This document shows, one piece after another, positions 42,827 to 63,160 of a DNA stretch of 64,000 bases. The stretch comes from an uncultured bacterium (GTDB lineage Bacteria > Eisenbacteria > RBG-16-71-46 > JABDJR01 > JAWXBZ01): the NCBI GenBank assembly GCA_964596775.1, contig CAZQVN010000012.1, positions 19,023 to 83,022 on the forward strand, written 5' to 3'. Every line of letters starts with the position of its first letter. Position 1 is the first letter of the stretch. The position numbers were made by a program, and so were the translations under genes. The notes under the pieces are model-generated. The model was given only the letters and a program-made list of their open reading frames with translations. It was not told the origin of the DNA and ran no database searches.

Positions 42827-42902
42827 TCCTCCTCGGTTTGCGGGGTCGGGTTTCCGATCCGAGTGTAGGACAGGAGCGCGGCGGGGTCCAGAATCGACGG
42901 GA

Positions 42903-45900
42903 TCAGCGACCGGCGGAAGGCAGGAGCGACCCGCGCGGAACCTCCACGTCGATCCGTGTGATGCCGCCGTCGCGACCCAGCAGAGAGGCGCTCTCGACGG
43001 GAGTGAGAGCGTCGCCGGGGCGTTCCGAGACGCCGTTCGTGCCGGTCACGCGGATGGACGGTCCCCTGCCCGTTCGTGTGTAAACGACCGGCACACCGGC
43101 GAACGTGAACGCCAGGGCACCTCCCGGCGGGAGGTCGATCCCCTGCTCCTCCCCCTCCAGGTCGACGTAGTCGAAGCGGTCTCCGCCCGCGGCAAACTCG
43201 CTGTCGCGGAGCAGCACCGGTCGAAAGCGGACGATCCCCCGGCTGACGAAGACGCCGAGTTCGCCGAACCGGGTGAGGATCTCCTCCTTGACCTGGCCGG
43301 TCATTCCCGGCTGCTGGGCCCCGGCGTGACCGGGCGTGTGCGAGTAAGGGTCGGTGGGAAACGCGCCGTACTCCGTCGGCGTCTTTTCGAATCCGAGGCC
43401 GGCGCGGATCCGGTAGTAGTACACGGCCAGCGTGTCGAACGCTTCGCCGGTTGCGCCCGAGTCCGCCGCGCGGAGCAGGATCTCCTGCACGGCGAGAAGC
43501 AGCTTGGCGACCATGTGCCAGTAGATGCAGCCGAGCCCCTCGTATCCGTACATCGTGCCGGAGCGGCCGGTCCACCTGTCGTGCCGGAACACCCGCTCGA
43601 ACAGGTCGAGGACCGGCTGTCGGTCCCTCGCCACGAGCGCCGCCCAGTTCGGCCGCTCGGCAATGCGGTCCAGCGCCAGCCCGACGTCGGCGGCGCGACC
43701 GATGTCCGGGGCGAAACGGACGACGTCCGCGGACTCCCGGACGACCAGCGTTTCGTCGCCCGAGTCGACGAGGCTGCGGAGGAGCGGGCTCGCCAGGACC
43801 GCGTCCGCGGCCATGCGGTTCTTCTCGAGAAAACCGGGGAGGTCGCGAAACGGATAGAGAAGGAAGCTCCCCTGGTCGGCCCGGTACATGCGGCTCGCGA
43901 ACAGCGCGGCGAGGATGTCCGCCGCCTCCTCCGGGGTCATGATTCCCGAACTCAGCACGGCCACCTGCCCCTCGAGCATCTCGTACAGGGGCTCAACGGA
44001 CAGCGACCGGCCGTCCGGCGCGAAGCGCAGCAGGGAGTAGGCCTGATACAGACCGTCGTCGCGCCGGGCGCCCCGGATCGTCGCATCGAGGTGCTCGAGG
44101 ACCCTCCGGCAGAAGGCGACGATCCCGTCGACCGGCACGTCGACGCGCCCGGACATCCCCCCGTCGTACACCCGGGTCCGGTACTCGTGATACACACCGC
44201 CGACCGCGTCGAGGAAACGCCGGCGCTTCGCGTCCGGATCGTCTTCCCCGCCGGGCTCCGCCGGCGCCCCGGGCGGACACGACATGGCGTCCGGGGAGTG
44301 CCCGGCGAATGCCTCCGCGATCCCCCGGTACCAGTCCGCCACCTCCGTACTCAGCGCGACGGAACTCCGCCCGGCCCCTGCGGCCAGGTCGGCCAGGCAT
44401 TCCATGTACCGGCGGAGATGGCAGAGCGTCACCATCGACACGCCGTTCCCCACCAGCGCGTTGTTCGCGTCGTTCCACTCCGGCCGCTGCGTGTTCATCC
44501 AGATGCCGCCGCCCGGAACATGATTGGACAGGCGCGCGAGGGCGGTGACGAGCAGCTTTTCGAACAGGCTGACGTGGTGCACCCGTCCGGCGGCATCGAG
44601 AACGAGCTTGCCGTCGGTGCCGAGTGCCGCGACCCGCTCATCGATCCGGGCGGCCAGCGCCGCGTCGAAATCGATCGTTTCGCGCGGATTCCGCACCATC
44701 TCCGCGTAGGAGCGGAGCCGGTAGGGCACGTTCGTGTAGCTGCAGATCTCGCGGAACAGGCTCGCGCCGAGCCCCTCGGGAGAAACGCGCCGCATCATCT
44801 CGATGAACCGGAGCAGGTACACGACCTGGTGATCCCCCCAGTAGCCGATGTGGCTCCAGGGATCGCGGGAGTCGGGGACCTCCCAGTCCACGCCGTCCCG
44901 GGTGACCCGGTACGGGTTGAAACCGTCCATCGTGGATGCGTTCACGAACCGGGCGATCATCCCCGGGAGAAAACCGGGATAGCCGAGGGCGAGCGCCTCC
45001 CAGTTCTGGAAGATGTCGCGCCAGTTCCCTTCGTAACCGAGGGCCCGCTCCCCCGCCGCGTTCTTCGTGCGGATCGCGAAGCGGTTCCACGGGCGGCTCG
45101 GGTCGCCGTGGCGGCGCCCGAACCAGAGCGGCAGGTACTCCCGGCAGAGGCGTTCGAGATCGGGATCCCCGACGGCCGCGGCGCGCCTCTCGAGGTCCGC
45201 CACCGACAGGAGCGGGGGCAGGGATTTCAGAAAGGACTCGTGGCGCCGGGCCGTGTCCCGGTTGCGCTCCCGGATCACGTCGCGGAGATCCGAGGCGGGA
45301 ATGTCATGGTTCCGCACGAAGGCACCGCCACGCATCGTGTTGAACAGCACGTTGGCACAGTGATGCGCGGACTCCTCGGCTCGGGCGGTGCACTGCAGGG
45401 CGTCGGCGGCGGCGATGATCTTCCGGAGCGATGCCCCGGCCGCGCGGATCCGGCCTTCCGTATCCCCGGCCGCATCGTCGCCGTCGAGAAGGCGGCGGGA
45501 CAGCTCCCCGATCTGCCGGGCATCCCGGCCGGTGTCCGCGACGATATGCCAGGTGGCGGACGCGCCCGGCGCGAGGCGCAGCGACGCGGCGGCAAGGTAG
45601 TGACCGCGGCGTCCGGTCACCAGCGTTTCCGGGGCCACGCTCCCTCCGGCCAGGAACGCGTCGATGGCCCCGGTCGACAGGGCCACCGTGGCCCCGGGCA
45701 ATCCGCGGACGTGCACCGTGGCGGCGCGCAGGACCTCGGCCGCCTCCACCCGGTCGGTGATCCGCGACGTCAGGGAGTAGATCGCGAGTCCCGTGCGGGG
45801 ATCGCACTCGGTGCGCTTGTACGCATCGACGAGGCAGCTGGACTGCTGGTACAGGGCGAGCGGCGCCCCGAACGGCAGTATGTTCCGGAGCCCGTCGAGC

Positions 45901-46424
45901 AGTTCGACACGCAGCGGGGTTTCCCCGGTGTTCTCGAGGACGGCGGTCCGAACGATGCCGAGGGCGTCACAGAGGGCCCAGCGGTAACGGAAGGACAGCC
46001 CGAGGCCGGGATGGATCGCCTCGAAGATCAGCTGCGTTCCGAAGATGTTCTTGTAGAGATTGCGCTTCACGGACTCGTCGCCCCACGCGCGTTCGGGAAA
46101 CGGCTGCCAGAGCGTCTCGCCGCCGGTCCCGCGTTTCACCCGGAGCAGCGTGATCGGCCCGGTATGGTGATGGCCGTCCATGAGGCGGTCCGCGGTTTCA
46201 TAGGGGAACAGGGCGCCGTCGGGTCCGACGCGACCGGCGGTGAGGCCGCCGCTCGACGCGACGAACATCCAGAGGTCGCTGTCCCCGGCCAGGGTCATCA
46301 GGAACGGCGGCATCCGGTCGTGACGGGAGATCCGGTAGAACAGCTCCCCGTCGATCTCCGTGAAGGCCCCGCGCGGGGCGTCGGCGGCGGCGCCCCGGTT
46401 CGCTTCGTGCGGAGAGCGGATCAC
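42903..46424 (-). CDS. Large cytoplasmic protein, candidate GH94/GH149/GH161-like (clan GH-Q) beta-glucan phosphorylase
   Basis: GTG 46424 overlaps the upstream stop as GTGA. About 1170 aa with no signal peptide. QRPEWNDANNALVGNG resembles the catalytic (G)DWND motif of GH94 phosphorylases. The size matches beta-1,3-glucan phosphorylases. The context is GH16, GH1 and an oligosaccharide importer. The 130-codon track extension was discarded. The family call is tentative. Confidence 0.5.
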   Translation of the reverse strand: MIRSPHEANRGAAADAPRGAFTEIDGELFYRISRHDRMPPFLMTLAGDSDLWMFVASSGGLTAGRVGPDGALFPYETADRLMDGHHHTGPITLLRVKRGTGGETLWQPFPERAWGDESVKRNLYKNIFGTQLIFEAIHPGLGLSFRYRWALCDALGIVRTAVLENTGETPLRVELLDGLRNILPFGAPLALYQQSSCLVDAYKRTECDPRTGLAIYSLTSRITDRVEAAEVLRAATVHVRGLPGATVALSTGAIDAFLAGGSVAPETLVTGRRGHYLAAASLRLAPGASATWHIVADTGRDARQIGELSRRLLDGDDAAGDTEGRIRAAGASLRKIIAAADALQCTARAEESAHHCANVLFNTMRGGAFVRNHDIPASDLRDVIRERNRDTARRHESFLKSLPPLLSVADLERRAAAVGDPDLERLCREYLPLWFGRRHGDPSRPWNRFAIRTKNAAGERALGYEGNWRDIFQNWEALALGYPGFLPGMIARFVNASTMDGFNPYRVTRDGVDWEVPDSRDPWSHIGYWGDHQVVYLLRFIEMMRRVSPEGLGASLFREICSYTNVPYRLRSYAEMVRNPRETIDFDAALAARIDERVAALGTDGKLVLDAAGRVHHVSLFEKLLVTALARLSNHVPGGGIWMNTQRPEWNDANNALVGNGVSMVTLCHLRRYMECLADLAAGAGRSSVALSTEVADWYRGIAEAFAGHSPDAMSCPPGAPAEPGGEDDPDAKRRRFLDAVGGVYHEYRTRVYDGGMSGRVDVPVDGIVAFCRRVLEHLDATIRGARRDDGLYQAYSLLRFAPDGRSLSVEPLYEMLEGQVAVLSSGIMTPEEAADILAALFASRMYRADQGSFLLYPFRDLPGFLEKNRMAADAVLASPLLRSLVDSGDETLVVRESADVVRFAPDIGRAADVGLALDRIAERPNWAALVARDRQPVLDLFERVFRHDRWTGRSGTMYGYEGLGCIYWHMVAKLLLAVQEILLRAADSGATGEAFDTLAVYYYRIRAGLGFEKTPTEYGAFPTDPYSHTPGHAGAQQPGMTGQVKEEILTRFGELGVFVSRGIVRFRPVLLRDSEFAAGGDRFDYVDLEGEEQGIDLPPGGALAFTFAGVPVVYTRTGRGPSIRVTGTNGVSERPGDALTPVESASLLGRDGGITRIDVEVPRGSLLPSAGR

Positions 46425-49446: not shown

Positions 49447-49522
49447 GATGGGTCCTCCCGGAGTGTGAACCGGGGGCGGTACTCGGGGCCTCTTCGACTC
49501 CTGCCCCGCCCCCCGGCAGAGC

Positions 49523-49540
49523 CTCGAATATCTCGAATAT
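49523..49540. repeat. Tandem direct repeat CTCGAATAT x2 in divergent promoter region
   Basis: ctcgaatatctcgaatat at 49523..49540. On the minus strand it gives TATATTCGAGATATTCGAG, with a TATATT -10-like hexamer for the minus-strand CBM operon. Confidence 0.4.
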
Positions 49541-49552
49541 AGTGTGGTCGCC

Positions 49553-49582
49553 TTGACTTCTCCCATCATGATACACTATGTT
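49553..49582 (+). promoter_or_regulatory. Candidate sigma70 promoter (TTGACT-18-TATGTT) for the plus-strand ABC-ATPase/GH1/GH-fusion operon
   Basis: -35 TTGACT at 49553..49558 and -10 TATGTT at 49577..49582. This is about 45 nt upstream of the GTG at 49629. The -10 overlaps the palindromic operator. Confidence 0.45.
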
Positions 49583-49597
49583 CGGCAATCGAACAAA
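49577..49597. promoter_or_regulatory. Palindromic operator TGTTCG-gcaat-CGAACA (copy 1 of 2)
   Basis: tATGTTCGgcaatCGAACAAAg has 6-bp perfect arms (8 bp with one mismatch) and a 5-nt spacer. It overlaps the -10/TSS. The same half-sites recur at 63286..63308. Confidence 0.55.
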
Positions 49598-49628
49598 GTC
49601 GAAAATGGACCTGTCCGGGAGATGATCC

Positions 49629-50516
49629 GTGACCACCCACACTGGAGTCGACACTCCGCCGCTGCTCGAAGTCCGGGACCTCCGCAAGGAGTTCGTCTCG
49701 AAGGGGCTTTTCAAGCCGGAACGCCGGATTGTCGCCGCCGACAACGTGTCCTTCCGGATCGAGCGCGGCGAGGCCCTGGCCCTCGTGGGGGAGTCGGGCA
49801 GCGGCAAGAGCACGGTGGCCCGGATACTCCTCCGGCTGCTCGAACCGGACGGCGGCTCCATCCTGCTCGACGGAATCGACGTTCTGGCCCGGGAACCGCG
49901 GGGGGCCTCGCTCGGCTACCGCGGACGCGTCCAGATGGTGTTCCAGGACCCGTTCGGCTCGCTGAACTCCGTGCATACCATCCTGCACCACCTCGAGAGG
50001 CCGCTGATCCGGCACGGCCGGACCGGAGCCACGAACCCGTCGCAGACGGTGTCACGGCACGTGGAACGACCGATGAAGCGGCACGGTCGCGGCGCCTCCG
50101 CGGACATCCGGGCACGCGCGCTGGAACTGCTGTCCATCGTCGGCCTTGATCCCGCGGCCGAGTTCATCGACCGGTACCCCTACGAGCTGTCCGGCGGGCA
50201 GCGCCAGCGCGTGGCCATTGCGCGGGCCCTGGCCGTGGAACCCGACCTCCTCGTGGCCGACGAGCCCACTTCCATGCTCGATGTGTCCATCCGCATGGAC
50301 ATCCTGAACCTTCTCGCCCGGCTGAAACGGGACCGGGGGCTGGCCATACTGCTGATCACTCATGACCTGGCCTCGGCACGCTACCTCGCGGAGCGGATCA
50401 TGGTCCTCTACCGCGGACGGATCGTCGAGGAAGGCGCGGCCGCCTCCATCGTGAACGCACCCACCCACCCCTACACGGTGTCCCTTCTCGAGGCGATCGC
50501 CGGAGCGTCGGCGTGA
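49629..50516 (+). CDS. ABC transporter ATP-binding protein (OppF/DppF-like)
   Basis: GTG 49629 with GGGAG 7 nt upstream. Walker A GESGSGKST, signature LSGGQRQR, Walker B LLVADEPTSMLD, H-loop ITHDL. Confidence 0.85.
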   Translation: MTTHTGVDTPPLLEVRDLRKEFVSKGLFKPERRIVAADNVSFRIERGEALALVGESGSGKSTVARILLRLLEPDGGSILLDGIDVLAREPRGASLGYRGRVQMVFQDPFGSLNSVHTILHHLERPLIRHGRTGATNPSQTVSRHVERPMKRHGRGASADIRARALELLSIVGLDPAAEFIDRYPYELSGGQRQRVAIARALAVEPDLLVADEPTSMLDVSIRMDILNLLARLKRDRGLAILLITHDLASARYLAERIMVLYRGRIVEEGAAASIVNAPTHPYTVSLLEAIAGASA

Positions 50517-51919
50517 CCCGGCGCCGGTTTCCCGAGGGCTTTCTCTGGGGGGCGGCCACGTCCGCGCCGCAGATCGAAGGAAGTCCCGACGCCGGGGGGC
50601 GCGGCGAGTCGATCTGGGACCGGTTTGCCGCCACGCCCGGCCGCATCGAGGACGGTTCGGACGCCCGGGTCGCCTGCGATCACTACAACCGCTGGCGCGC
50701 CGACATCGGCCTGATGCGCTGGCTGGGGATCGGCGCGTACCGGTTCTCCATCGCCTGGCCGCGCGTCCTTCCGAACGGTGACGGCGCGGTCAACGAACGC
50801 GGGCTCGACTTCTACGACCAGCTCGTGGACGGCCTGCTCGAGGCCGGGATCGACCCGTTCGTGACGCTCTATCACTGGGATCTCCCCCAGGCACTCGAGG
50901 ACCGGGGGGGCTGGGGCAACCGCGACACCGTGGACGCCTTCACGGCGTATGCCGAGGCGGTCGTGGCCCGCCTCGGCGACCGGGTGCGGAACTGGACCAC
51001 CCACAACGAGCCGTGGTGCATTGCCGCGCTCGGACACGAGGAGGGGGTCCACGCGCCGGGGCACAAGGATCCGGCCCTTTCGCTCTCGGTGGCGCATCAC
51101 CTGCTGCTCTCGCACGGCCGCGCGGTCGAACTCATCCGGGCCCGCCGCCCCGACGCCCGCGCCGGAATCGTCCTGAACCTGACCCCGGCCCATCCGGAAA
51201 CGGAAGGCTCCGCGCGAGACATCGACGCGGCCCGCCAGTTCGACGGACTCTTCAACCGCTGGTACCTCGATCCCCTGTTTCACGGCCGCTACCCGGCGGA
51301 CGCCGTCAACGACCGGGTGCGTTACGGCCATCTCGAGGATCACGATCTTCCGTTCGTGCTGCCGGGAGACATGGACGAGATCCGGACTCCGCTCGATTTC
51401 CTCGGCATCAACTACTACAGCCGCGTCGTCGTCCGCGCCGGAGACGACGGACGCCCCCGGGCCGTTCCCGGAGCGCCGGCCGAGGAACTGACCGACATGG
51501 GCTGGGAGGTGTATCCGCAGGCGCTCGACCCCCTCCTCGTCCGGATCCACGAGGAGTACGGCCCTCCGGAGATCTGCATCACGGAAAACGGGGCCGCCTA
51601 CACCGACGCCCGCGACGAGCACGGGCGGGTCATCGACCGGCGCCGCATCGAGTACTTCCGCGGACACCTTGCCGCGGCGCACCGGGCGATCGAGGCCGGC
51701 GTGCCGCTGTCCGGATACTTTGCCTGGTCGCTGCTCGACAATTTCGAATGGGCGCACGGTTACGCAAGGCGGTTCGGCCTGTTCGACGTGAACTACAGCA
51801 CGCAGGAACGCGCGGCGAAGGAAAGCGCGTTCTGGTACCGCGACGTGATCGCCGGAAACGGGTTCGACGACCGACCCGCGTCCCGCCGCGCCGAACACTC
51901 TTCGAGGAGGTTCCCTTGA
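50513..51919 (+). CDS. GH1 family beta-glucosidase
   Basis: GTGA overlap with the upstream stop. N-terminal FPEGFLWGAATSAPQIEG. Acid/base TTHNEPW. Nucleophile ICITENGAAY. 468 aa. Confidence 0.9.
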   Translation: MTRRRFPEGFLWGAATSAPQIEGSPDAGGRGESIWDRFAATPGRIEDGSDARVACDHYNRWRADIGLMRWLGIGAYRFSIAWPRVLPNGDGAVNERGLDFYDQLVDGLLEAGIDPFVTLYHWDLPQALEDRGGWGNRDTVDAFTAYAEAVVARLGDRVRNWTTHNEPWCIAALGHEEGVHAPGHKDPALSLSVAHHLLLSHGRAVELIRARRPDARAGIVLNLTPAHPETEGSARDIDAARQFDGLFNRWYLDPLFHGRYPADAVNDRVRYGHLEDHDLPFVLPGDMDEIRTPLDFLGINYYSRVVVRAGDDGRPRAVPGAPAEELTDMGWEVYPQALDPLLVRIHEEYGPPEICITENGAAYTDARDEHGRVIDRRRIEYFRGHLAAAHRAIEAGVPLSGYFAWSLLDNFEWAHGYARRFGLFDVNYSTQERAAKESAFWYRDVIAGNGFDDRPASRRAEHSSRRFP

Positions 51920-54900
51920 GCTTCATCCGGACAGGATCTGCCGGCGGCCGCGCGATGCTGGCCGCCATGGTGATGACGACACTGCTGGCGGCGGCCCCGG
52001 CCTCCTCGGCCGAGGACAGCGCATCCGCCGCGGTTGCGAAGGTGGCGGTGGTCACCGACGGCCAGGGAAGCCGGATCCAGGTCGACGGCCGGGACATGAT
52101 GATCTACGGCATGAACTGGGACTGCTTCCCCGTCGGCACGAACTACACGTTCGACCTCTGGTCGCAGCCGGACGCGATCATCGAGGAGATGCTGGCCCGC
52201 GACATGCCGCTCCTCCGGGAAATGGGGGTCAACGCCATCCGGCTCTACGTGGGCGTCCCCCCCCGCTGGGTCCGGTTCATGTACGAGCGCTACGGCATCT
52301 ACACGATCCTCAACCACCCGATGGCCCGCTACGGCTTTCTCCTCGACGGCGTCTGGGTGGCATCGGTGGATTACGCGGACGAACGACTGCGCGAGGCGGT
52401 CAAGGCCGAGATCCTGGCGGTCGTCGAGGAGTTCCGGGACACGCCGGGCGTGCTGATGTGGCTGCTCGGCAACGAGAACAACTACGGGCTCACCTGGACG
52501 TCCGCGGAAACCGAGGCGCTTCCGGAAGGGGAGCGGGACGGAGCACGGGCCCGCAAGCTCTATTCGCTGTTCAACGAGGTGACGAAGGGGGTCAAGGCCC
52601 TCGACCCGAACCGCCCGGTGGCCATCGCCAACGGCGACGTCCAGTACATCGACATCATCGCCGAGGAGTGCACGGACATCGACGTCTTCGGCACGAACGT
52701 CTACCGCGGTCTCTCGGCGCGCGACCTCTTCCAGGTCGTCAAGGACAAGCTCGGCGTTCCGGTGTTGTTCACGGAGTTCGGAGCCGACGCGTTCAACGCC
52801 CGCGAGATGCGCGAAGACCAGGAGACGCAGTGCCGCTATCTCGTCGCCCAGTGGGAGGAGATCTACGAGCAGTCGAGCGGCAAGGGTCGGGTCGGCAACG
52901 CCGTCGGCGGCCTCGTCTTCCAGTGGACGGACGGCTGGTGGAAGTACAAGCAGGAGGAGCGGCTGGACGTGCACGACACGAACGCGTCCTGGCCGAATGC
53001 CGGTTACCCCGAGGACTACGTGGCCGGCGCGAACAACATGAACGAGGAGTGGTGGGGCATCACCGCGAAGGGGCCGACGGAGCTCAACGGCCTGTACAAG
53101 GTCTATCCGCGGGCCGCCTACTACGCGCTCAAGAGGGCGTTTTCCCTCCCGGCCTACGCGCCGGGCACGGACATCGAGGCGATCCGGGATCACTTCCGCA
53201 CGATCTCCGCCGCGGCGGCCGCTCTCGAGGCCCGCGGTGACCGCGCGGCCCTCGTGGCCGAGCAGCTGTCGCGCGTCCGCCTGTCCGGGCTCCGCCTCGA
53301 GTTCGAAACGTATTCGACCGGCGGCACCGGCATCACCACGCCCGAGGCATCGGGCGGCGCCGGCGGGGCCTACCCCTCGTTCCGGGGTTTCGACCAGATG
53401 CAGTCGTTTTATGCCGCACTCGAGGCGAAGCCGGCGGAAAACGTCACCGGGACGGTCACGATGAACGTGCTCGGCAGCGTCCCGGCCAATCCGATCGACG
53501 AGATCTTCTATGAAAACCGCGGGAGGCCGGTCAGCGTGGAAACCGGCGGGACGCAGGCGCTCGCGCTCGAGGACATCGAGCGGGTCAAGGTGTACCAGGC
53601 CGGCGTGTCCTGGGACGACACCCACTTCCTGCTCGACGGGTTCTACCGCACCGGTCACCTGCACTGGGCGTACGAAGGCGATTTCTTCGGCCTGTACCGC
53701 GAGGCGTACTACGGCGACAACATCGACATCTACAACGGCGTGGCCCCGGTCGGCCTGGAGTTGACCGGCAAGCGGCAGTTTTCGGGCCTCAAGCTGGCCA
53801 TGGGACCGGAGCTCTGGTGGGGCGCGAACCCGGCGGTGTTCCTGAAATACAACCGGCAGATCGGGTCGATCGCGGCCACCGGCATCTACCAGGAGGACAT
53901 CGCCGAGAAGTCGGGAGCGGCCAGCTCCACCGCCATTCCGGTGCCGCCGACGCGGAAGGCCACGCTGCAGCTGGCCACGCGGCGCGGCCTGTTCGGCCTC
54001 GAAGTCGGAGGCATCTGGTCCGGCCAGACGAAGGTCGGCGACCCGTTCGAGGTCGTCGACGACACCGGAGACGGCACCCTCCTGCTCCAGGACGAGGTGA
54101 AGGGCTCCGACGCCTTCGGAGCCAAGGCCAAGCTGACGTTCCAGAAGGGGCGCTGGAACTGGTACGGACAGGCCGCGTACATGGGCGTCGTGGCGGACGC
54201 GGGCCCGACGACGATTCCCACGTTCACCGGATGGACGCTCAAGGACTCGGGCTCCGGCAACCAGGCCAACGTCCTGACCGGCCTGGCCGTGAACATGGGC
54301 CATTTCCAGGTGGCGCCGAACTTTCTCTACCAGAAGCCGCTCGTCGGCCCGCTCCCCTTCGATCCGGACGGGCGGTTCTTCGCCCGCAACGTCATCGACG
54401 ATCCGTTCGCGGTGCGCGGCAACCGGGAAACCGTGGGCACGGAGCTCCTGTTCACGTTCGATCCGACGCCGGCCACCTGGTTCTGGATGTGGGACAATGA
54501 CGTGCGCGAGGACGCCCGTTTCGCGGCGAGCCTGGGCTGGACGCTGCGCCACCTGCCGACGACGCAGGACGGGGCGCTCTACGTGTCGGCGGACGGCATC
54601 ACGTTTCCGTTCCTGTCGGCCACGCCCCCGCGCGACCTCTGGGAGGTCAGGAGCCGCATCGTGTCCCGCATGAGCCCGACCACCCGCCTGGTGGCCCACA
54701 TCTACGGGGGGACCGCGGAGCCGAACGGCGACGACCCGCGGCTCCTCAAGCGGTTCGGCGCCGATGCGCGGCTGGCGGTCGAGTCGATCGCGTTCGAGAC
54801 GTTCGTCAAGATCAACGACTTCGGTCCGTACGACTACCATCGCGACTTCAACCTGACGTTTCCGGTCCAGCTGATGGGCGACCTCTCGCACACGCTCGGA

Positions 54901-55053
54901 AACCCGCGCTGGTTCAACTTCGCGCAGACGAAACTCGGCGTCCGGGGCACGTGGAGATCGCTCGACGATTTCTCGCCGCGCTACGCGCCGGAACTCGGCA
55001 CGACGAAGAGCAACGAGTGGGAGATCCGGACCTACCTGCACCTGGGGCTGTAG
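51916..55053 (+). CDS. Secreted clan GH-A TIM-barrel glycoside hydrolase fused to a ~700-aa C-terminal beta-rich domain (possible outer-membrane beta-barrel), 1046 aa
   Basis: TTG 51916 (AGGAGG 5 nt upstream) overlaps the GH1 stop as TTGA. Signal peptide MSFIRTGSAGGRAMLAAMVMTTLLAAAPASSA. Catalytic-pair pattern WLLGNENNYG (acid/base NE) and VLFTEFGADAF (nucleophile E). The C-terminal half is Gly/Tyr/Trp/Thr-rich with alternating hydrophobic patterns and ends ...WEIRTYLHLGL. The earlier part of the track ORF (51013..51915) is an out-of-frame overlap with the GH1 gene and was discarded. Confidence 0.6.
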   Translation: MSFIRTGSAGGRAMLAAMVMTTLLAAAPASSAEDSASAAVAKVAVVTDGQGSRIQVDGRDMMIYGMNWDCFPVGTNYTFDLWSQPDAIIEEMLARDMPLLREMGVNAIRLYVGVPPRWVRFMYERYGIYTILNHPMARYGFLLDGVWVASVDYADERLREAVKAEILAVVEEFRDTPGVLMWLLGNENNYGLTWTSAETEALPEGERDGARARKLYSLFNEVTKGVKALDPNRPVAIANGDVQYIDIIAEECTDIDVFGTNVYRGLSARDLFQVVKDKLGVPVLFTEFGADAFNAREMREDQETQCRYLVAQWEEIYEQSSGKGRVGNAVGGLVFQWTDGWWKYKQEERLDVHDTNASWPNAGYPEDYVAGANNMNEEWWGITAKGPTELNGLYKVYPRAAYYALKRAFSLPAYAPGTDIEAIRDHFRTISAAAAALEARGDRAALVAEQLSRVRLSGLRLEFETYSTGGTGITTPEASGGAGGAYPSFRGFDQMQSFYAALEAKPAENVTGTVTMNVLGSVPANPIDEIFYENRGRPVSVETGGTQALALEDIERVKVYQAGVSWDDTHFLLDGFYRTGHLHWAYEGDFFGLYREAYYGDNIDIYNGVAPVGLELTGKRQFSGLKLAMGPELWWGANPAVFLKYNRQIGSIAATGIYQEDIAEKSGAASSTAIPVPPTRKATLQLATRRGLFGLEVGGIWSGQTKVGDPFEVVDDTGDGTLLLQDEVKGSDAFGAKAKLTFQKGRWNWYGQAAYMGVVADAGPTTIPTFTGWTLKDSGSGNQANVLTGLAVNMGHFQVAPNFLYQKPLVGPLPFDPDGRFFARNVIDDPFAVRGNRETVGTELLFTFDPTPATWFWMWDNDVREDARFAASLGWTLRHLPTTQDGALYVSADGITFPFLSATPPRDLWEVRSRIVSRMSPTTRLVAHIYGGTAEPNGDDPRLLKRFGADARLAVESIAFETFVKINDFGPYDYHRDFNLTFPVQLMGDLSHTLGNPRWFNFAQTKLGVRGTWRSLDDFSPRYAPELGTTKSNEWEIRTYLHLGL

Positions 55054-55057
55054 GCGG

Positions 55058-55076
55058 TCCCGGGGCGCTTCCGGGA
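55058..55076. terminator. Hairpin TCCCGG-ggcgctt-CCGGGA between convergent genes (possible bidirectional terminator, no U-tract)
   Basis: 6-bp stem with 7-nt loop, centred in the 38-nt gap between the + gene ending at 55053 and the - gene ending at 55092. Confidence 0.3.
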
Positions 55077-55091
55077 GATTCCGCCCGCGGC

Positions 55092-56060
55092 TCAGCGCTC
55101 CGGCGCCTCCGCCACATGGCACGCCGCGGCGTGACCGGTACCGAACGTGCGCAGCTCCGGCCGCGACTCGCGGCAGCGCTCCTCGACCAGCGGGCAGCGC
55201 GGGTGAAAACGGCAGCCGGCCGGCGGGTTCACGAGCGACGGGGGTGAGCCGGGAATGCTCACCGGCACCACGTCTCCCTTGACCGAAGGAAACGCCTGGA
55301 GCAGTCCCTTCGTGTACGGGTGGTGCGGCTCCTTCCGGAGCGCCGCCACCGGCCCGACCTCCACGAGGCGGGCGGCGTAGAACACGGCCACCCGGTCCGA
55401 CACCGACAGCATCCGGGCCAGGTCGTGGGTGATGAACATCACCGCGAAGCCGACCTCCTTCTGCAGGGCGCGGATCCGGTTGAGGATGTCCCGCTCGACG
55501 ACGACGTCGAGCGCGGTGGTCGGCTCGTCGAGGATCACCAGCGACGGCCTGAGCGCCAGCGCCAGCGCGATCCCCACCCGCTGCCGCATCCCCCCCGACA
55601 GCTGGTGGGCGTACGCGTCCAGCCGGTCCACGGGGATGTCGACCATGTCCAGCAGTTCGCGGGCCCGGGCGCGGGCGGCGCCGCCGGACGACACTCCGTG
55701 CGCCTCCAGCGTGTCCACGATCTGTTCGCCGACGGTGATGACCGGGTTCAGCGCATCCATGGCGCTCTGGAAGACCATCGAGATCCGGTTCCAGCGGATG
55801 GCCCGGAGTCCCGCTTCATCGAGGTCGAGAATGTTCTTCCCCTCGAACCGCACCGTGCCGCCGGAGATCACCGCGGGCGGCGGAAGGATGCGCATCACCG
55901 CCTGGGCCAGCGTGGACTTTCCGCTCCCCGACTCCCCGGCCACGCCGAGGATCTCGCCGGGCAGGAGATCCAGCGACAGGTCGTCGATGGCGCGCACCGG
56001 CCCCCGGTCGGTGATGTAGTCCACGTTCAGCCCGCGGATCGACAGGAGCGGCTCAGCCAC
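55092..56060 (-). CDS. ABC transporter ATP-binding protein (OppD/DppD-like, with C-terminal oligopeptide-ABC extension)
   Basis: Walker A GESGSGKST, signature LSGGMRQR, Walker B LVILDEPTTALD, ITHDL. C-terminal CxxHPRC Cys motif typical of the OppD family. Confidence 0.85.
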   Translation of the reverse strand: MAEPLLSIRGLNVDYITDRGPVRAIDDLSLDLLPGEILGVAGESGSGKSTLAQAVMRILPPPAVISGGTVRFEGKNILDLDEAGLRAIRWNRISMVFQSAMDALNPVITVGEQIVDTLEAHGVSSGGAARARARELLDMVDIPVDRLDAYAHQLSGGMRQRVGIALALALRPSLVILDEPTTALDVVVERDILNRIRALQKEVGFAVMFITHDLARMLSVSDRVAVFYAARLVEVGPVAALRKEPHHPYTKGLLQAFPSVKGDVVPVSIPGSPPSLVNPPAGCRFHPRCPLVEERCRESRPELRTFGTGHAAACHVAEAPER

Positions 56061-56988
56061 GATCCACCACCACCGGCGTCGAGCGCGACGGCTCCTGCCC
56101 GCGCTTCCTGAGCCACGCTCCCCACGCCCGCTCCAGCTGCAGGCGCGGGTTCGTGATCTCGTCGAAACCCGAGTTCAGCATCGTCAGCGCGAACCCGACG
56201 AGCGCCACGCAGAACCCGGTCGGCGCGAACGTCCACCACGCGCCGGTCAGCAGCGCGGAATCGTTCTGCGCCCAGTAGAGATTCGTGCCCCAGGTCACCG
56301 AGGACACGTCGCCGAGGCCGAGATACTCGAGGCCGACCTGGGCGCCGATGGCGTACACGGTGCTGCCGATCACCTGGGCGACGATGAGGCTCGTCATCGT
56401 GGGGAGGATCTCGCGGGTGATGATGCGGAAGTTCGACTCCCCGGTGACGATCGCCGCGGCGACGAAATCGCGGCGCCGCTGGGCCAGCGTCTGGGCCCGC
56501 ATCACGCGGGCGTTCCAGGCCCAGCCGGTGACCACGAGAACGAGGCCGAGCGTCAGCGGCCCGGACGGCAGGTAGGCCGCGATCACGATGGCCAGGGGAA
56601 GGCCGGGAATGACCAGGAACACGTTGAACAGCAGCGACAGGAGCCCGTCGACCCGCCCGCCGAAGTATCCGGCGGCGACGCCGATGAGCGCCCCGATCAG
56701 GACCACGATCAGGCCGACGCTGAAGCCGAGCAGGAGCGACGTCCGGGTGCCGGCCACGAGCTGGGCCAGCACGTCCTGCCCCTGCCCGGTCGTGCCGAGC
56801 CAGTGCTCCGCGGACGGGGGCGACAGCGGAATGCCGACCAGCGCGCCGGGGTCGCCGACGAACAGCGGGCCGAACGCGGCGATCAGGACGAACACGAGGA
56901 GGATCGCGGCGCCGATCGACGCCTTCCGGTCGCGGCGGATCGCCTGCAGCCACGACCCGATGCCGGTGGCCTTCGCGGAGCCGGTCAT
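56053..56988 (-). CDS. ABC transporter permease (OppC/DppC-like)
   Basis: ATG 56988 overlaps the upstream stop as ATGA. About 6 TM segments. The ABC permease EAA-like region ...AAIVTGESNFRIITREILP... is present. The upstream part of the track ORF is R/G-rich and was trimmed. Confidence 0.8.
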   Translation of the reverse strand: MTGSAKATGIGSWLQAIRRDRKASIGAAILLVFVLIAAFGPLFVGDPGALVGIPLSPPSAEHWLGTTGQGQDVLAQLVAGTRTSLLLGFSVGLIVVLIGALIGVAAGYFGGRVDGLLSLLFNVFLVIPGLPLAIVIAAYLPSGPLTLGLVLVVTGWAWNARVMRAQTLAQRRRDFVAAAIVTGESNFRIITREILPTMTSLIVAQVIGSTVYAIGAQVGLEYLGLGDVSSVTWGTNLYWAQNDSALLTGAWWTFAPTGFCVALVGFALTMLNSGFDEITNPRLQLERAWGAWLRKRGQEPSRSTPVVVDRG

Positions 56989-57968
56989 TCGCCGGAATCC
57001 CGGGTGCGGGGATCGAGCCAGATGTAGACCATGTCGACGAGCCAGTTCGCGCCGAGCACCGCGAGCGTGATCACGAGGAAGATCCCCTGCATCAGCGGAT
57101 AGTCCTGGTTCCGCACCGCCTGGACCAGCAGGTAGCCCTGGCCGGGATAGGAAAAGACGATCTCGGTGAGCAGCGACCCGCCGAGCACGTAGCCGAGCGC
57201 CATGCCGAAGCCGGTGACGGAGGGAAGCAGCGCGTTCCGGGCCGCGTAGCGCAGGACGACCCGCGACGGGGACAGCCCCTTGGCCCGGGCCAGGTTCACG
57301 TAGTCGGCGGAGAGAACGGTGATCATCGTGTTGCGCATCGACAGGAGCCAGCCGCCCAGGGTGACGAGGACGACGGTGCCCACCGGGAGCGCGGCGTGGC
57401 GGACCACGTCGGCGAGGAACACCGCCGAGAACCCGGGCGTCAGGTCGTCGCCGTAGGCGTGGCCGAGCGGAAACCACCCGAGCGTGAAACCGAACACGTA
57501 GAGCGCCACCATCGCCAGCCAGAAGTAGGGAAACGCGCCGACGAACACGAGGACCGGGGGCAGCACCGTGTCCAGCCAGCCGCGCCGCCACCAGGCGGCG
57601 GCCACGCCGAGCAGCGTGCCGATCACGAAACTCAGCACGACCGCGGTGCCGGCCAGGAAGATCGTCCAGACGAGGCCCGACCCGATCACGTCGACCACCG
57701 GCGTCGGAAAGTAGGCCACCGAGATGCCGAGATCCCCCCTCAGCACATGGGCGAGATACTGGAAGTACTGTTTCCAGAGCGGAGCCTCGGTCAGGCCGAA
57801 TGTCTGCCGGAGGGCGTCCAGCGCCTCGGGCCCGAGGCGCCCCTTGAACCGCGCGAACAGCGCCGTGGCGGGGTCACCGGGCATGAGCCGCGGCAGGAAG
57901 AAGTTCAGGGTCAGCGCCGCCCAGGCGGCCACCAGGTAGAACCCGAGACGGCGGAGCAGAAACCTCAC
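56985..57968 (-). CDS. ABC transporter permease (OppB/DppB-like)
   Basis: GTG 57968 overlaps the SBP gene stop (GTGA). MRFLLRRLGFYLVAAWAALTLNFFLPRLMPGDP is the typical OppB N-terminus. Six TM segments. Confidence 0.8.
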   Translation of the reverse strand: MRFLLRRLGFYLVAAWAALTLNFFLPRLMPGDPATALFARFKGRLGPEALDALRQTFGLTEAPLWKQYFQYLAHVLRGDLGISVAYFPTPVVDVIGSGLVWTIFLAGTAVVLSFVIGTLLGVAAAWWRRGWLDTVLPPVLVFVGAFPYFWLAMVALYVFGFTLGWFPLGHAYGDDLTPGFSAVFLADVVRHAALPVGTVVLVTLGGWLLSMRNTMITVLSADYVNLARAKGLSPSRVVLRYAARNALLPSVTGFGMALGYVLGGSLLTEIVFSYPGQGYLLVQAVRNQDYPLMQGIFLVITLAVLGANWLVDMVYIWLDPRTRDSGE

Positions 57969-59646
57969 GGCGCCTCCGTCTTCGGCACGAGCGACGTGAG
58001 CACGAGCAGGCATTCCCCGCGGTCGAACTTGTTCGGGGACGGATCGGCGTACGGATTGTCGCGCGAGGGAAAGCCGTCGAACCGGCGCGTGTTGTACTCG
58101 GCCCACGACGGGTTCGGGTACAGCGGAATGGCCGGCACTTCGGCGGCGAAGACCGCCTGCAGGTTGTCGACGAGACGCCGCTGCTCCGCGGGGTCCGGCT
58201 CGCGCTCGAACGCCAGCAGCGCGGCATCCGCGGTCGGACTGCCGTAGCGGTGCCAGTTCGCGCCGGACACCTCGCCCGGCGGCTTGACCGTGGCGGTGGA
58301 CATCAGCGTGCGGTAGAAGATGTACGGCGTGGGGCCCTCGAAGGACCAGCCGAGCGTCAGGTCGAAGTTCCCCTCCTGGACGCGCTGGAACCAGGCGCCG
58401 AAGTCGTAGGTGCGGACGGTCGCGTCCACGCCCGCCTCCGCGAGGCCGCGGGCGATCACCTGCGCCGCGCGGACCCAGTCGGACCAGCCGGAGACGGTGA
58501 GGATTTCATACCGCCACGGCGTTCCGTCGGGCAGCGTGCGGAAACCGTCCGCCCCCCTCCGGTATCCCGCCGCGTCGAGGATCGCGTTGGCGCGCTCCAG
58601 ATCGTGACGCACCCAGTCCGCCGTATCCGCCACCGTCTCGTTCCGCCACGCGGAGTACGCGTCGGAGAGGGCCGTGGCATCGGCCGGCCGCGAGTAGCGG
58701 TAGCAGGCCACGTCGACGAGAAGGTCGCGGTCGATGGCCATGCTGAGCGCCTTGCGCACCTGGATGTCGTCGAACGGCGCCCGCGTCGTGTTCGCGTACA
58801 GGAAGACGGTGCTCCCGGTCAGCGGGAACCAGTAGTGGTGATCCTCGGGGTTGCGGTCGCGGTACACGCGCTCCACCGCGGGAATGAAGTTCCCGGCCCA
58901 GTCCACCTCGTCGAAGACGAGGGCGAGATTCGCCCGGTCGTTCGACGGGTAGGCCGGAAAGCGCAGCGCGTCGAAGCGCGGCACCCCGGGCTGCCAGTAG
59001 TGCGGATTGCGACCGAGCTCGAAGAACTGGTTCTTGAACACCCGGACTTCCGTGAACGGCCCGGTGGCCACCGGATTCTCGTTGGGGAAGGCCACCGGGT
59101 CCTCGATGAGGCTCCAGACGTGCTCCGGCACGATCTGCGAAGCAGCGACCTCGTCGAACCCGGGGATGTAGACCCGCTGGAACCGGAACTCCACGGTCGT
59201 GTCGTCGGGCGCCGAGACGCTCTCGAGAAAGCTCCACACGGCGCGGCGGTCCAGCGCCGGGTGCCGGCGCATCAGGTCGAACGTGAACGCCACGTCGGCG
59301 GCGCCGAACGCCTCCCCGTCCGACCAGCGAACGCCGCGGCGCGTCGTCAGGCGGAGCACCCGGTTGTCCTCCCGCCAGAGGTGCCCGGTGGCCAGCCAGG
59401 GCACCTGTTCCGAGGTGACGCTGTTGAAGACGAACAGCGGCTCGTACACGCCGGCCATGGTCGGCCAGCGCGCCGCCGAAGCGGTGGACAGCGGATTGAA
59501 GTTGCGGACCCAGGAGGCGTGCTGTTCCTGCGAGACGACCAGGACGCCCAGCGGAGGTTCCGGGGGCTTGCGCACGCAGGCCGGCCCGGCGAAGCCGAGC
59601 GCGATAAGGACGGCGAGAATCCGGCTCATTCCGCGGGCGGCCCGGT

Positions 59647-59650
<4 letters not shown>
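57965..59650 (-). CDS. ABC transporter substrate-binding lipoprotein, family 5 (Opp/Dpp-like; probable oligosaccharide binder by context)
   Basis: ATG 59650 overlaps the GH16 stop (ATGA). Lipobox LIALGFAGPAC. Family-5 SBP length (561 aa) and conserved ...YEPLF..., ...GTPWRYEIL... blocks. Confidence 0.8.
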
Positions 59651-60491
<841 letters not shown>

Positions 60492-60495
<4 letters not shown>

Positions 60496-61798: not shown

Positions 61799-63160
61799 TT
61801 ACCGGTGGAAGTAGATGTTGTCGACGAAGATCGTCTTTCCGTCGCCGGCGATGATAATCTGCGCCATGTGCCCCCGTGAAATCAGCCCGGTGAACGCCGT
61901 CAGCGGGATGTCCAGGGAAGCCCAGCGGCCCGAAGCATACGGCGGCGTGGACGCGGCATCCAGCGTCAGCTCGTGCTCGTGGTCGGGAGCCCCTCCGAAC
62001 GTGCCGTCCTCGCCGAAGTCGACGAGCTTGACCTTGAACACCGAACCCTCGGTGCCCCACACGTCGATGTGGAAATGGGTCATGGCCGACGCGTCGATCG
62101 TCGCGTTCCCGAACTCGATCCCGGCAAAGACGAGGTTCGTGTAGGCCTTCGTGTCGTTGCCGGCGATCTTCAGGTCGGCCACGTCGGCCTGGTCCCAGGT
62201 GGCCGACCAGGTGTCCACGGGCACGGCGGCATAGCTGTTGCTGTACAAGGCAATGACGTTACCCGCGGGGAGCGTGGGCGCCGGCGCCGCCGTCGGGGGC
62301 ACGGCGCTCGTGTTGAGCGTGACCGTGCCCGACACCGGCACGGCGCCGAGCAGCGCGGTGATCATGGCCGTTCCTCCGCCGACGACCTGGATCGACCCGT
62401 TCCGGACGACGGCCACGTCCTCGTTCGACGACAGGAACGTGAAGTATCCCGGCTGGTGCCCGATCGTCCGGTCGGTTCCGGCAACGCTGAACACCGTGCG
62501 CGTCCCCTCCACGGTTACGGTGGCCCCGACGAACCCTCCGGCCGTGCGGGTGGTCATGGACGGCCGCGGGTTGGAAATTATGGTTACGGTTTCGAACTGG
62601 ATCTCGTCGAACCAGATGTCGTACGACGCGGCGCCCTCCGGACCCTCGGCAAAGAAGAACAGGCCGCGCTCCGCGGACAGCCTCTCCGGCAGCGGGATGG
62701 GGATCACGTACTTTCGCCAGGTCGTGGTGAGCGCGATCGCGCTCTGGCTGGCCTCGTACTTCGATGTTCCGGTGTTGTCGTTTCCGAGCCCCGCGACATC
62801 GAGGACGGCCGCCTTGCCGGCCTTGGCCCAGAAGGTGAGCGCGTTGTAGGAGGACAGGTCGCGCGCCGGCCGGGTCGTGAACGCCCCCCCGGCATAGCCG
62901 CCGGTGGTGCTCCCCGGGGCGGGAACCGTCACCTTGAGCGATGCGGATCCCTGGTAGCGCTCGTTCGTGTCGATGGACACGGCATCCAGCCGTGACCCCT
63001 GGAACGCCTGGAAATCGAGCCCCCCTTCGAACGCGTCGAGAAAGACGACGGGATTCGAGTCGAGCGGCACGGGCTGGAGGCCGGAAATGTCCCGTTCGCA
63101 GCCGGCGACGCAGAGAATCGCCGCAACGGCGGCCGTTCCTGTCATGTGTCTACGATTCAT
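61799..63160 (-). CDS. Surface lipoprotein with two CBM-like beta-sandwich modules (candidate glycan-binding protein)
   Basis: ATG 63160 (GGAGG 4 nt upstream). MNRRHMTGTAAVAAILCVAGC lipobox. Two modules: ...ALTFWAKAGKAAVLDV...YDIWFDEIQFE and ...THFHIDVWGTEGSVFKVKLVDFG...IFVDNIYFH. The track's upstream 155 codons were discarded. Confidence 0.55.
   Translation of the reverse strand: MNRRHMTGTAAVAAILCVAGCERDISGLQPVPLDSNPVVFLDAFEGGLDFQAFQGSRLDAVSIDTNERYQGSASLKVTVPAPGSTTGGYAGGAFTTRPARDLSSYNALTFWAKAGKAAVLDVAGLGNDNTGTSKYEASQSAIALTTTWRKYVIPIPLPERLSAERGLFFFAEGPEGAASYDIWFDEIQFETVTIISNPRPSMTTRTAGGFVGATVTVEGTRTVFSVAGTDRTIGHQPGYFTFLSSNEDVAVVRNGSIQVVGGGTAMITALLGAVPVSGTVTLNTSAVPPTAAPAPTLPAGNVIALYSNSYAAVPVDTWSATWDQADVADLKIAGNDTKAYTNLVFAGIEFGNATIDASAMTHFHIDVWGTEGSVFKVKLVDFGEDGTFGGAPDHEHELTLDAASTPPYASGRWASLDIPLTAFTGLISRGHMAQIIIAGDGKTIFVDNIYFHR

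Follow-up and report, generated by a model that had tools for sequence, protein, structure and literature searches.

In the sea and in soils, laminarin and its beta-1,3-glucan relatives rank with the largest flows of fixed carbon, and what is known of how they cross the outer membrane comes mainly from TonB-dependent systems of the SusC/SusD type. The 1,3-glucan utilization locus (1,3GUL) of Bacteroides uniformis encodes SusC/SusD, SGBP-B and enzymes of the glycoside hydrolase (GH) families GH16_3, GH158 and GH3 (PMC7157763). Marine laminarin polysaccharide utilization loci (PULs) hold GH16_3, GH17, GH30, GH149 and GH158, together with SusCD and BguR (bioRxiv 10.64898/2026.01.10.698779). Here, we analyze a 64,000-nucleotide stretch of DNA from an uncultured bacterium of the Eisenbacteria (contig CAZQVN010000012.1, positions 19,023 to 83,022, genome GC 69%; hereafter the window), whose gene content suggests a putative locus for the utilization of beta-1,3-glucan. 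In this locus, one open reading frame (ORF) joins a GH domain to a large C-terminal domain predicted to be an outer-membrane beta-barrel, and this fusion is the subject of the present work.

The closest solved enzyme is BuGH158 of B. uniformis, a predicted cell-surface endo-laminarinase in which N136, E137 and E220 are essential, E220 being the nucleophile, and in which a C-terminal Ig-like domain packs on helices alpha7 and alpha8 (PMC7157763). GH158(Pro) is a processive, laminaribiose-releasing enzyme (PMC13195107). For the window protein, we put at roughly two in three the probability that it is a Sec-exported two-domain outer-membrane protein, in which a beta-1,3-glucan channel carries a GH158-like glucanase at its periplasmic mouth.

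Domains of the fusion protein

The fusion gene and its parts are listed below, with positions in the window and residue numbers of the predicted protein.

51916..55053, + strand: coding sequence of the fusion, 1045 amino acids, with a signal peptide, a GH158-like GH-A domain, a helical connector and a predicted outer-membrane beta-barrel
51905..51910, + strand: Shine-Dalgarno sequence AGGAGG, 5 nt ahead of the TTG start codon, read from the sequence
51916..52011, + strand: Sec (signal peptidase I) signal peptide, about residues 1-32, recognized in the sequence and not of the lipoprotein type
52042..53145, + strand: clan GH-A (beta/alpha)8 catalytic domain, about residues 43-410, closest to GH158 beta-1,3-glucanases (AlphaFold2 and Foldseek)
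52471..52476, + strand: N186-E187, predicted acid/base pair (NE motif), invariant in 50 homologues and aligned to the GNE of 6pal and of GH2
52774..52776, + strand: E287, predicted catalytic nucleophile (FTEFGAD), invariant in 50 homologues and aligned to the ITEWG of 6pal
53173..53268, + strand: two conserved helices linking the enzyme to strand 1, at residues 420-428 and 432-451 (AlphaFold2)
53275..55050, + strand: predicted outer-membrane beta-barrel domain, residues 454-1045, with about 24-26 predicted transmembrane strands (AlphaFold2, Foldseek)
53650..53751, + strand: long connection between strands 5 and 6, residues 579-612, of low model confidence, holding most of the motif HWxYEGDFFGLYR
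55009..55050, + strand: last strand, residues 1032-1045, SNEWEIRTYLHLGL, with polar/hydrophobic alternation, a candidate beta-signal for the barrel assembly machinery (BAM)

Translation of 51916-55053 runs through 1045 residues with zero internal stops, starting at a TTG that shares bases with the stop codon of the GH1 gene upstream. A preliminary description of this ORF, made from the letters alone, had noted this TTGA coupling and the AGGAGG ribosome-binding site, both of which are read directly in the DNA. Its signal peptide is likewise seen in the sequence as one of the signal peptidase I type, with a basic n-region, the core MLAAMVMTTLLAAAP and a cleavage region reading ASSA before and E after the cut, and a lipobox is missing in 49 of 50 homologues. 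The catalytic pair that it had pointed out in LLGNENNYG (N186-E187) and LFTEFGADAF (E287) is present and invariant in the 50 homologues, and the C-terminal end ...TYLHLGL is found in the translation. Its domain sizes need correction: the hydrolase, given as about 330 residues, extends in the model to about residue 410, and the C-terminal domain, given as about 700 residues, comprises about 590 (454-1045) after the two helices at 420-451. As for the composition reported as rich in Gly, Tyr, Trp and Thr, this stands for Gly (11.2%) and Thr (8.3%) but fails for Tyr (3.7%) and Trp (2.7%), which do not exceed their levels in the GH domain (5.8% and 3.4%).

The N-terminal domain belongs to clan GH-A by its fold as well as by its NE and nucleophile Glu residues. 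Residues 43-410 alternate between strands and helices, with predicted local distance difference test (pLDDT) values mostly of 85-96 (AlphaFold2, 50 homologues). The sole Pfam match of the protein is Glyco_hydro_2_C (PF02836) at residues 87-297 (E 2e-9, 37.5 bits against a cut-off of 21), spanning profile positions 32-219 of 302. Pfam finds neither GH2_N nor GH2 Ig domains in the protein, which thus lacks the GH2 domain order, and its scores lie far under the cut-offs of the NCBIfam beta-galactosidase models. When the full model was searched against the PDB with Foldseek, the top matches were BuGH158 6pal and GH158(Pro) 9p26, 9oro, 9p25 and 9p2f, with E values of 4e-12 to 4e-11, template modeling (TM) scores of 0.54-0.57 on target length and 13-14% identity; GH2 glucuronidases rank after GH158, and triose-phosphate isomerase (TIM) barrels of GH1 are also among the best matches. 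The structural ranking points to a GH158-like clan GH-A enzyme rather than to a demonstrated member of GH158, and the gene context suggests a putative beta-1,3-glucanase activity. In the AlphaFold2 model, no beta-sandwich follows the TIM barrel, and a C-terminal Ig-like domain of the BuGH158 type is absent.

Two helices connect the enzyme to the barrel. Their pLDDT is high up to about residue 440 and falls at the junction, which suggests that the tether is short. Among the 50 homologues, A439 and R440 never vary, and D442, A444 and L446 are kept in at least 90%.

Both AlphaFold2 models, one of the full-length protein and one of the C-terminal domain, contain about 26 strands of 6-18 residues, most of at least 8, each antiparallel to its next neighbor; since strands 12 and 13 have a polar character and could be a loop hairpin, we give the count as 24-26. 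With the C-terminal model, all of the 50 best Foldseek matches listed from the PDB are outer-membrane barrels with probability 1.00, including BtuB, PfeA/FepA, OprC, FrpB, ZnuD, AlgE, ScrY (1oh2/1a0t), chitoporin (7vtz), MOMP and OccAB3. The connections between strands differ by parity: 9 of 12 even-to-odd connections have 2-3 residues, and all 13 odd-to-even connections have 6-37. Such a parity is the canonical pattern of outer-membrane proteins, under which both termini would be periplasmic. With its signal peptide, strand meander, turn pattern and C-terminal strand, the predicted domain fits the class of outer-membrane beta-barrels. The suspicion in the preliminary description that this part is a barrel, and not a set of carbohydrate-binding modules (CBMs) or Ig modules, is thereby upheld by the antiparallel strands and the matches listed, and neither a soluble beta-sandwich nor a CBM array is seen in the model.

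In the models, the fold class is clear, and assignment to a specific known channel family is unsupported, as none of the solved structures matched shows a specific likeness. No Pfam or NCBIfam model matches residues 454-1045, and a Pfam scan of 15 fused and standalone barrels at E values up to 5 gave scattered chance matches only (DUF6882, YvbH_ext). None of these 15 members matches LamB, OprB, KdgM or AlgE-type porin families at this threshold. Plug and TonB_dep_Rec, by which a TonB-dependent transporter would be recognized, have no Pfam match at E up to 5 either, and the Autotransporter model (PF03797) has none, nor does the domain have the 12 strands of type Va.

We consider it very improbable that the C-terminal domain is a soluble beta-rich module of a secreted enzyme (CBM or Ig arrays, or a beta-solenoid) and the barrel an AlphaFold artefact. 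The mean pLDDT of 67 for the C-terminal model and the low TM-scores to outer-membrane proteins would agree with such a module, as would the dyad amphipathicity of the barrel strands, which is like that of the GH-domain strands (2.2 vs 1.9) and, giving no separation, was not used as evidence. However, no CBM, Ig or other Pfam match exists in the C-terminal domain, 0 of the 50 listed Foldseek matches are soluble, and the strands of 8-18 residues follow a strictly next-neighbor order in which tight turns alternate with long loops.

Conserved motifs are concentrated in or next to the long connections. The most conserved motif of the family, HWxYEGDFFGLYR (residues 583-595), lies mostly in the strand 5-6 connection and starts by H581/H583, just outside it; its W584, G588 and D589 are among the residues invariant across the fused barrels and the standalone ones described below. 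Fused and standalone barrels also have in common, in the connections of strands 7-8, 17-18 and 18-19, the motifs WWGANP, DPFAVRxNRE and DPTPATWxWxWDNDVREDA, respectively, as well as GPYDYHRDFNLTFP, which takes in the connection of strands 23-24 and runs into the beginning of strand 24. Loops with these motifs may fold into the lumen and form a selective constriction; the one between strands 5 and 6 may be such a constriction or may bind sugar.

Standalone barrels and distribution of the fusion

An exhaustive HMMER search with residues 440-1045 returned 463 representatives, among which are barrels without any enzyme. These standalone barrels of 564-598 residues (P0189, P0192, P0207, P0221, P0237 and P0243) align end to end with the window barrel, carry their own signal peptide directly ahead of strand 1 and end in ...Y-x-F, the aligned last position being Phe or Tyr in standalone homologues that reach the C terminus. 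Those with a named source come from metagenome-assembled genomes (MAGs) of Pseudomonadales and Oceanospirillaceae and are annotated as hypothetical; HBD24246.1 is an example of a standalone barrel. Whether the barrel also exists apart from the hydrolase had been raised in the preliminary description, and in marine Gammaproteobacteria it does, as a gene of its own with signal peptide and Y-x-F end.

The gene context of the standalone barrels is that of sugar import. In all four clusters inspected, the barrel gene is accompanied by a solute-binding protein (SBP) of the SBP_bac_5 family, two permeases and two ATPases of an ATP-binding cassette (ABC) importer, LacI and GH16; two of the four show a GH1 gene as well, and in three the barrel gene opens the run. 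The ABC components of these clusters share 32-50% identity with their window counterparts, the SBPs 32-33%. Homologues that have a signal peptide and a Y-x-F end, and that lie at or inside importer gene runs, also argue against the soluble module considered above.

In Pseudomonadales MAGs (L005/L006, 10707-12407, +), the standalone barrel is followed by a gene for a 566-residue protein with repeats of about 180 residues ('GAYDxDADF..VFQVQPGWGWGGETSALAM'). This protein has no Pfam match and may be a glycan-binding protein; it was tried as a GH-A domain and as a second barrel (L005) and rejected, being unrelated to either. A set of type II secretion genes lies immediately upstream.

The fused form is widespread. 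More than 4,546 protein clusters match the window protein over its full length, and the best 120 have 967-1084 residues, 91-100% query coverage and 60-68% identity. Named members among these best clusters come from Krumholzibacteria and Eisenbacteria MAGs and are labeled 'glycosidase'. With HWxYEGDFFGLYR as the retrieval pattern, at least 580 species-representative genomes were found to encode a relative, and counts given below out of 80 refer to the best 80 of these at least 580 genomes, one genome per species. The 80 include Gemmatimonadota (with closed Longimicrobiales chromosomes), Krumholzibacteriota, Eisenbacteria, Ignavibacteria, Calditrichota, Fibrobacteraceae, Rhodothermales, Balneolales, Saprospiraceae and Chitinophagales. 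A cultured carrier is Foetidibacter luteolus YG09 (Chitinophagales), whose protein (WP_153797730.1) is labeled in RefSeq 'glycoside hydrolase family 2 TIM barrel-domain containing protein'. In the open-access papers and bioRxiv preprints searched, neither the fusion nor the barrel family was found to be described.

The preliminary description had treated the ORF as one gene, and this is borne out by the lack of a stop in the window and by 79 of the 80 species loci, where the GH and the barrel share a single uninterrupted frame. It is extremely improbable that an error of assembly or sequencing joined two genes into this long ORF: one locus of the 80 does have an interrupted frame, but the architecture of about 1050 residues recurs in more than 4,500 clusters from independent sources and stays in one frame in the other 79, among which are closed chromosomes and the genome of a cultured isolate. 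The interrupted locus, in a Gemmatimonas MAG (L051, about 9107-9240), is probably an assembly error or a pseudogene. Four members that at first looked like odd or short architectures (P0149, P0224, P0179 and P0225) were rejected as truncated gene calls.

We read the barrel as one shared with Gammaproteobacteria, to whose N terminus a GH158-like glucanase has been fused in bacteria of the Fibrobacteres-Chlorobi-Bacteroidetes (FCB) group. The C-terminal residue follows lineage. The window protein has the hydrophobic end ...EWEIRTYLHLGL, and in the FCB fusion loci the last residue is M, W, I or L in 59 of 80, polar in 19 and Phe in 2. This dependence on lineage (Phe or Tyr in standalone barrels vs M/W/I/L in FCB fusions) may reflect lineage-specific beta-signals for BAM.

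Gene neighborhoods, proposed function and placement of the enzyme

In the window, the fusion is surrounded by the following features.

49553..49582, + strand: sigma-70-like promoter match, TTGACT-18-TATGTT, 9/12 matches, upstream of the three-gene + unit; weak evidence for a promoter
49629..50516, + strand: ABC ATPase of the Opp/Dpp type (ABC_tran E 2.6e-32, partial oligo_HPY), its stop overlapping the GH1 start (GTGA)
50513..51919, + strand: GH1 beta-glucosidase without signal peptide (cytoplasmic), Glyco_hydro_1 E 3e-159, its N terminus leading straight into the GH1 fold
55092..56060, - strand: second ABC ATPase (OppF-like), convergent with the fusion, ABC_tran E 2e-28, oligo_HPY E 1e-17
56053..58106, - strand: two ABC permeases (OppC-like and OppB-like), BPD_transp_1 in both, OppC_N, BPD_transp_1_N
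57965..59650, - strand: family-5 solute-binding protein, SBP_bac_5 E 2e-68, a periplasmic oligosaccharide receptor
59647..60495, - strand: GH16 laminarinase-type lipoprotein, Glyco_hydro_16 E 5e-23, lipobox LSGTGC, true start at mechanical-ORF residue M387
61799..63160, - strand: CBM11-like lipoprotein, weak CBM_11 match, lipobox LCVAGC, true start at M156, a candidate partner for glycan binding
42903..46310, - strand: GH149 beta-1,3-oligosaccharide phosphorylase, cytoplasmic, matching 6hq6 with E 3.9e-283 over residues 2-1126

The first ABC ATPase, GH1 and the fusion form a three-gene + unit with stop/start overlaps at both junctions (GTGA between ATPase and GH1, TTGA between GH1 and the fusion). 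The promoter match ahead of it is the sole such site within 49300-55300, where shuffled sequence gives a mean of 0.2. The neighboring GH1, called cytoplasmic in the preliminary description, indeed lacks a signal peptide. Calling the longest ORF adds spurious N-terminal residues to the GH16 protein (386) and to the CBM11-like protein (155), and acidic residues follow the lipobox in both; the mechanical ORFs of the permeases overlap, so their true starts must lie further in. The mechanical ORF of GH149 (1302 residues), a family for which Pfam has no model, runs too far upstream. Among the window ORFs scanned, Pfam found no SusC/SusD-type families.

Comparable gene sets surround the fusion in other species. 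Among the 49 species loci of at least 20 kb, with neighbors counted within 10 kb, GH16 occurs in 47, a CBM-like gene in 47, GH149 in 19, GH1 in 11 and an ABC system in 5. Since the CBM-like gene is as tightly linked as GH16 (47/49), its product could be a SusD-like partner of the barrel. GH1 also adjoins the fusion in 17 of the 80 loci and in a Krumholzibacteria locus (L001), which has GH17, FlgD_ig proteins, a homologue of the GH149 gene, a GH1 gene overlapping the fusion, GH16, ROK and a transporter of the major facilitator superfamily (MFS). Even a relative of about 30% identity has GH16 next downstream. The operon of Foetidibacter (L076) is minimal: it consists of the fusion, a CBM11/CBM30-like protein (matching CBM_11 and CBM30), GH16, a 1178-residue homologue of the GH149 gene and MFS_2, with a BguR-like Reg_prop/Y_Y_Y regulator encoded divergently upstream. 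No SusC/SusD-type family was found by Pfam among the 10 Foetidibacter neighbor ORFs scanned, and this minimal operon encodes no other candidate periplasmic glucanase. The Foetidibacter regulator itself appears as two ORFs of 400 and 539 residues (5549-8491, -), which may reflect a frameshift, a sequencing error or two genes. A 1150-residue gene in another locus (L089) was considered as GH149 and rejected.

Some features of these neighborhoods stand apart from the fusion. The Opp-type ATPase genes of the window are divided between two convergent units, one with GH1 and the fusion and the other with the SBP and permeases, and the same split occurs in L009, L012, L015, L044 and L062. Two secreted proteins (46421-48037 and 48034-49569, both -) have N-terminal CBM-like modules with 'LLANPSFE...GW..FG' and end in a FlgD_ig domain that could serve as a tail for sorting or resemble that of type IX secretion; their homologues flank the fusion in Krumholzibacteria-type loci (L001, L011 and L035). 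An ORF of 843 residues adjoining the locus (40337-42868, +) has no Pfam match.

The barrel is most probably an uptake channel. For the standalone form this is suggested by adjoining SBP_bac_5/ABC importer genes with GH16, LacI and often GH1, and for the fused form by synteny with genes for GH16, GH149, a CBM-like lipoprotein and importers of the MFS or ABC type. We infer the substrate, the direction of transport and the membrane side of the enzyme from this context and from topology, and propose the following route. The GH16 and CBM-like lipoproteins would capture and nick the polymer outside the cell, after which chains or oligosaccharides would cross the barrel, where the long conserved loops, rich in aromatic and acidic residues, may act as a selective constriction. 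The GH domain, placed by topology at the periplasmic mouth, would cut the emerging chains into short laminari-oligosaccharides. The family-5 binding protein and the ABC importer, or MFS_2 in other species, would deliver these to the cytoplasm, where GH1 and the GH149 phosphorylase would complete their breakdown.

Export of a polysaccharide is the reverse of this route. Synthase-dependent secretion systems pair a porin with a periplasmic glycanase, so the barrel could be the porin of beta-glucan secretion (AlgE-, BcsC- or PgaA-like) and the hydrolase a 'clearance' enzyme like BcsZ, PslG or AlgL, and AlgE is among the Foldseek matches listed. We think this hardly credible: no glycosyltransferase or synthase gene was seen beside any locus examined, the neighbors are catabolic or import genes (GH1, GH16, GH17, GH149, SBP/ABC, MFS_2, and LacI, ROK or BguR-like regulators), and the AlgE match is no better than many unrelated outer-membrane proteins (TM 0.24-0.28).

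The membrane side of the enzyme is a closer question. For the predicted topology we lean slightly toward the periplasmic mouth, for which three points speak: the turn parity starts strand 1 in the periplasm, about 10 poorly modeled residues separate the confident helix from strand 1, and the minimal operon is without another periplasmic glucanase. Alternatively, the GH domain may be displayed at the surface, either with the barrel as an anchor like that of an autotransporter and helix 432-451 running through the lumen, or with the enzyme capping the outer mouth of the pore; in either form the polymer would be cut outside the cell and the products fed into the barrel. The order of signal peptide, passenger-like enzyme, 20-residue helix and C-terminal barrel does resemble type Va, and the closest solved enzyme is predicted to be at the cell surface. 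Moreover, an N-terminal CBM_4_9, or a further GH-like module carried by a Pro-rich linker, is added in some members, as is typical for polymer-facing enzymes. Surface display nevertheless appears unlikely, although with an appreciable chance. The barrel has about 590 residues and about 24-26 strands vs 12, with no Autotransporter or other outer-membrane protein match in Pfam at E up to 5, and its gammaproteobacterial counterpart is passenger-free and sits in a transport operon. In addition, the first half of the helix (pLDDT 89-95) belongs to the enzyme side, leaving about 10 residues for a membrane crossing, and the operons already have a GH16 lipoprotein as candidate surface endo-enzyme but no other periplasmic glucanase. 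The surface-anchoring or export solution offered in the preliminary description is thus not supported, as fused and standalone barrels lie among import and catabolic genes and parity would put the enzyme in the periplasm. A GH domain plugging the barrel from within was rejected on size, a TIM barrel of about 370 residues measuring about 45-50 A vs a lumen of about 35-38 A for a 26-strand barrel (our own estimate).

Several results weigh against the glucan-channel reading with its periplasmic enzyme. The number of strands, the closing of the barrel and the place of helix 432-451 with respect to the lumen are putative; the full model has a predicted TM-score of 0.54, and the TM-scores of the barrel to known outer-membrane proteins are low (0.24-0.39), in line with the C-terminal pLDDT quoted above. 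Of the 'periplasmic' connections, two are long, with 20 and 12 residues, the longer being the strongly conserved DPTPATWxWxWDNDVREDA, a poor fit to a simple turn. Sequence similarity to GH158 is marginal (phmmer against 9oro, E 7e-4 over residues 160-290; family profile against 6pal, E 1.8e-4, with the NE and nucleophile Glu paired with those of GH158), and for this reason beta-1,3 specificity is drawn mainly from the structure ranking and gene context. The predicted cell-surface location of BuGH158 (PMC7157763) also counts here. Finally, two members (P0125 and P0254) vary in what precedes the GH and barrel: one, of 1351 residues, has there a second, degenerate GH-like module on a Pro-rich linker, and the other, of 1218 residues, an N-terminal CBM_4_9. 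Additions of either kind are more usual in extracellular enzymes.

More speculatively, and with rather low odds, the channel-enzyme fusion could be a TonB-independent import machine, in which a GH158-like and possibly processive glucanase at the periplasmic exit of a wide channel takes hold of the emerging beta-1,3-glucan chain, cleaves it and rectifies diffusion by hydrolysis, as in a Brownian ratchet, and blocks back-flow. If so, 'selfish' laminarin uptake would occur in the FCB group without SusC/SusD or TonB energy, and the barrel would represent a new family of outer-membrane glycan channels shared with marine Gammaproteobacteria.

Relation to known systems

Together with the SusC/SusD-type systems, the proposed channel would make a second solution to glucan uptake, in which the glucanase is borne by a barrel of another kind; the fusion occurs in at least 580 species-representative genomes. 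Current annotation misses the barrel, naming these proteins 'hypothetical', 'glycosidase' or 'GH2 TIM barrel-domain protein'. Recognizing it would improve the prediction of PULs and of clusters of carbohydrate-active enzymes outside classical Bacteroidota and would add a new outer-membrane protein family. The fusion also offers a simple system for studying the cooperation of an enzyme with a channel and, with Foetidibacter luteolus YG09 in culture, one that is directly testable.

At the level of the enzyme, the window protein resembles GH158 (BuGH158 6PAL; GH158(Pro) 9ORO/9P26) in being its top structural match, in the GH-A NE acid/base and Glu nucleophile and in its place in beta-1,3-glucan loci. 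It differs in an identity of 13-14% and in having two helices and a predicted membrane barrel where BuGH158 has its Ig-like domain. At the level of the locus, the likeness to the 1,3GUL and marine laminarin PULs lies in GH16, a GH158-like enzyme, GH149 (with GH17 in L001) and glycan-binding lipoproteins, in the proposed logic of binding, nicking, importing and finishing inside and, for the marine loci, in the BguR-like Reg_prop/Y_Y_Y regulator of Foetidibacter. In contrast to these PULs, the outer-membrane component is a barrel of another kind, without plug, TonB box or Pfam model and in one chain with the GH158-like enzyme; no GH3 is present, the inner-membrane step is taken by an Opp-type ABC importer or MFS_2, and GH1 and GH149 are cytoplasmic.

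Among outer-membrane proteins, sugar porins come close in apparent function. The chitoporin ChiP of Vibrio is paired with a chitobiose SBP_bac_5/ABC operon, and LamB and ScrY are sugar porins, with 16-18 strands. The barrel likewise seems to be an outer-membrane channel specific for its substrate, its standalone form being linked to SBP_bac_5, an ABC importer and cytoplasmic glycosidases. However, it has no sequence-family match to them, is larger (about 590 residues and about 24-26 strands vs 16-18) and is fused to an enzyme in the FCB group.

The order of domains has its own precedents. LptD (26-strand), TonB-dependent transporters, PapC and BamA combine an N-terminal periplasmic domain with a barrel, and the fusion shares with them the order of signal peptide, soluble N-terminal domain, here predicted to be periplasmic, and very large C-terminal barrel. 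It shows neither a sequence relationship nor a specific structural one to any of these, the TM-score of about 0.35 to TonB-dependent transporters being generic, and its N-terminal domain is of a catalytic kind instead of a plug, POTRA or jellyroll. The type Va and Vd autotransporter enzymes EstA and PlpD are likewise single polypeptides in which an enzyme precedes a helix and, at the C terminus, a barrel of the outer membrane, but the barrel of the fusion is two to three times larger, lacks an Autotransporter Pfam match, has passenger-free homologues and occurs in a context of nutrient import. Thus, the parts are of known kinds, namely a GH-A glucanase, an outer-membrane channel and a PUL-like locus, and what is new is the joining of the hydrolase to a large putative glycan channel at the place where SusC/SusD would be expected.

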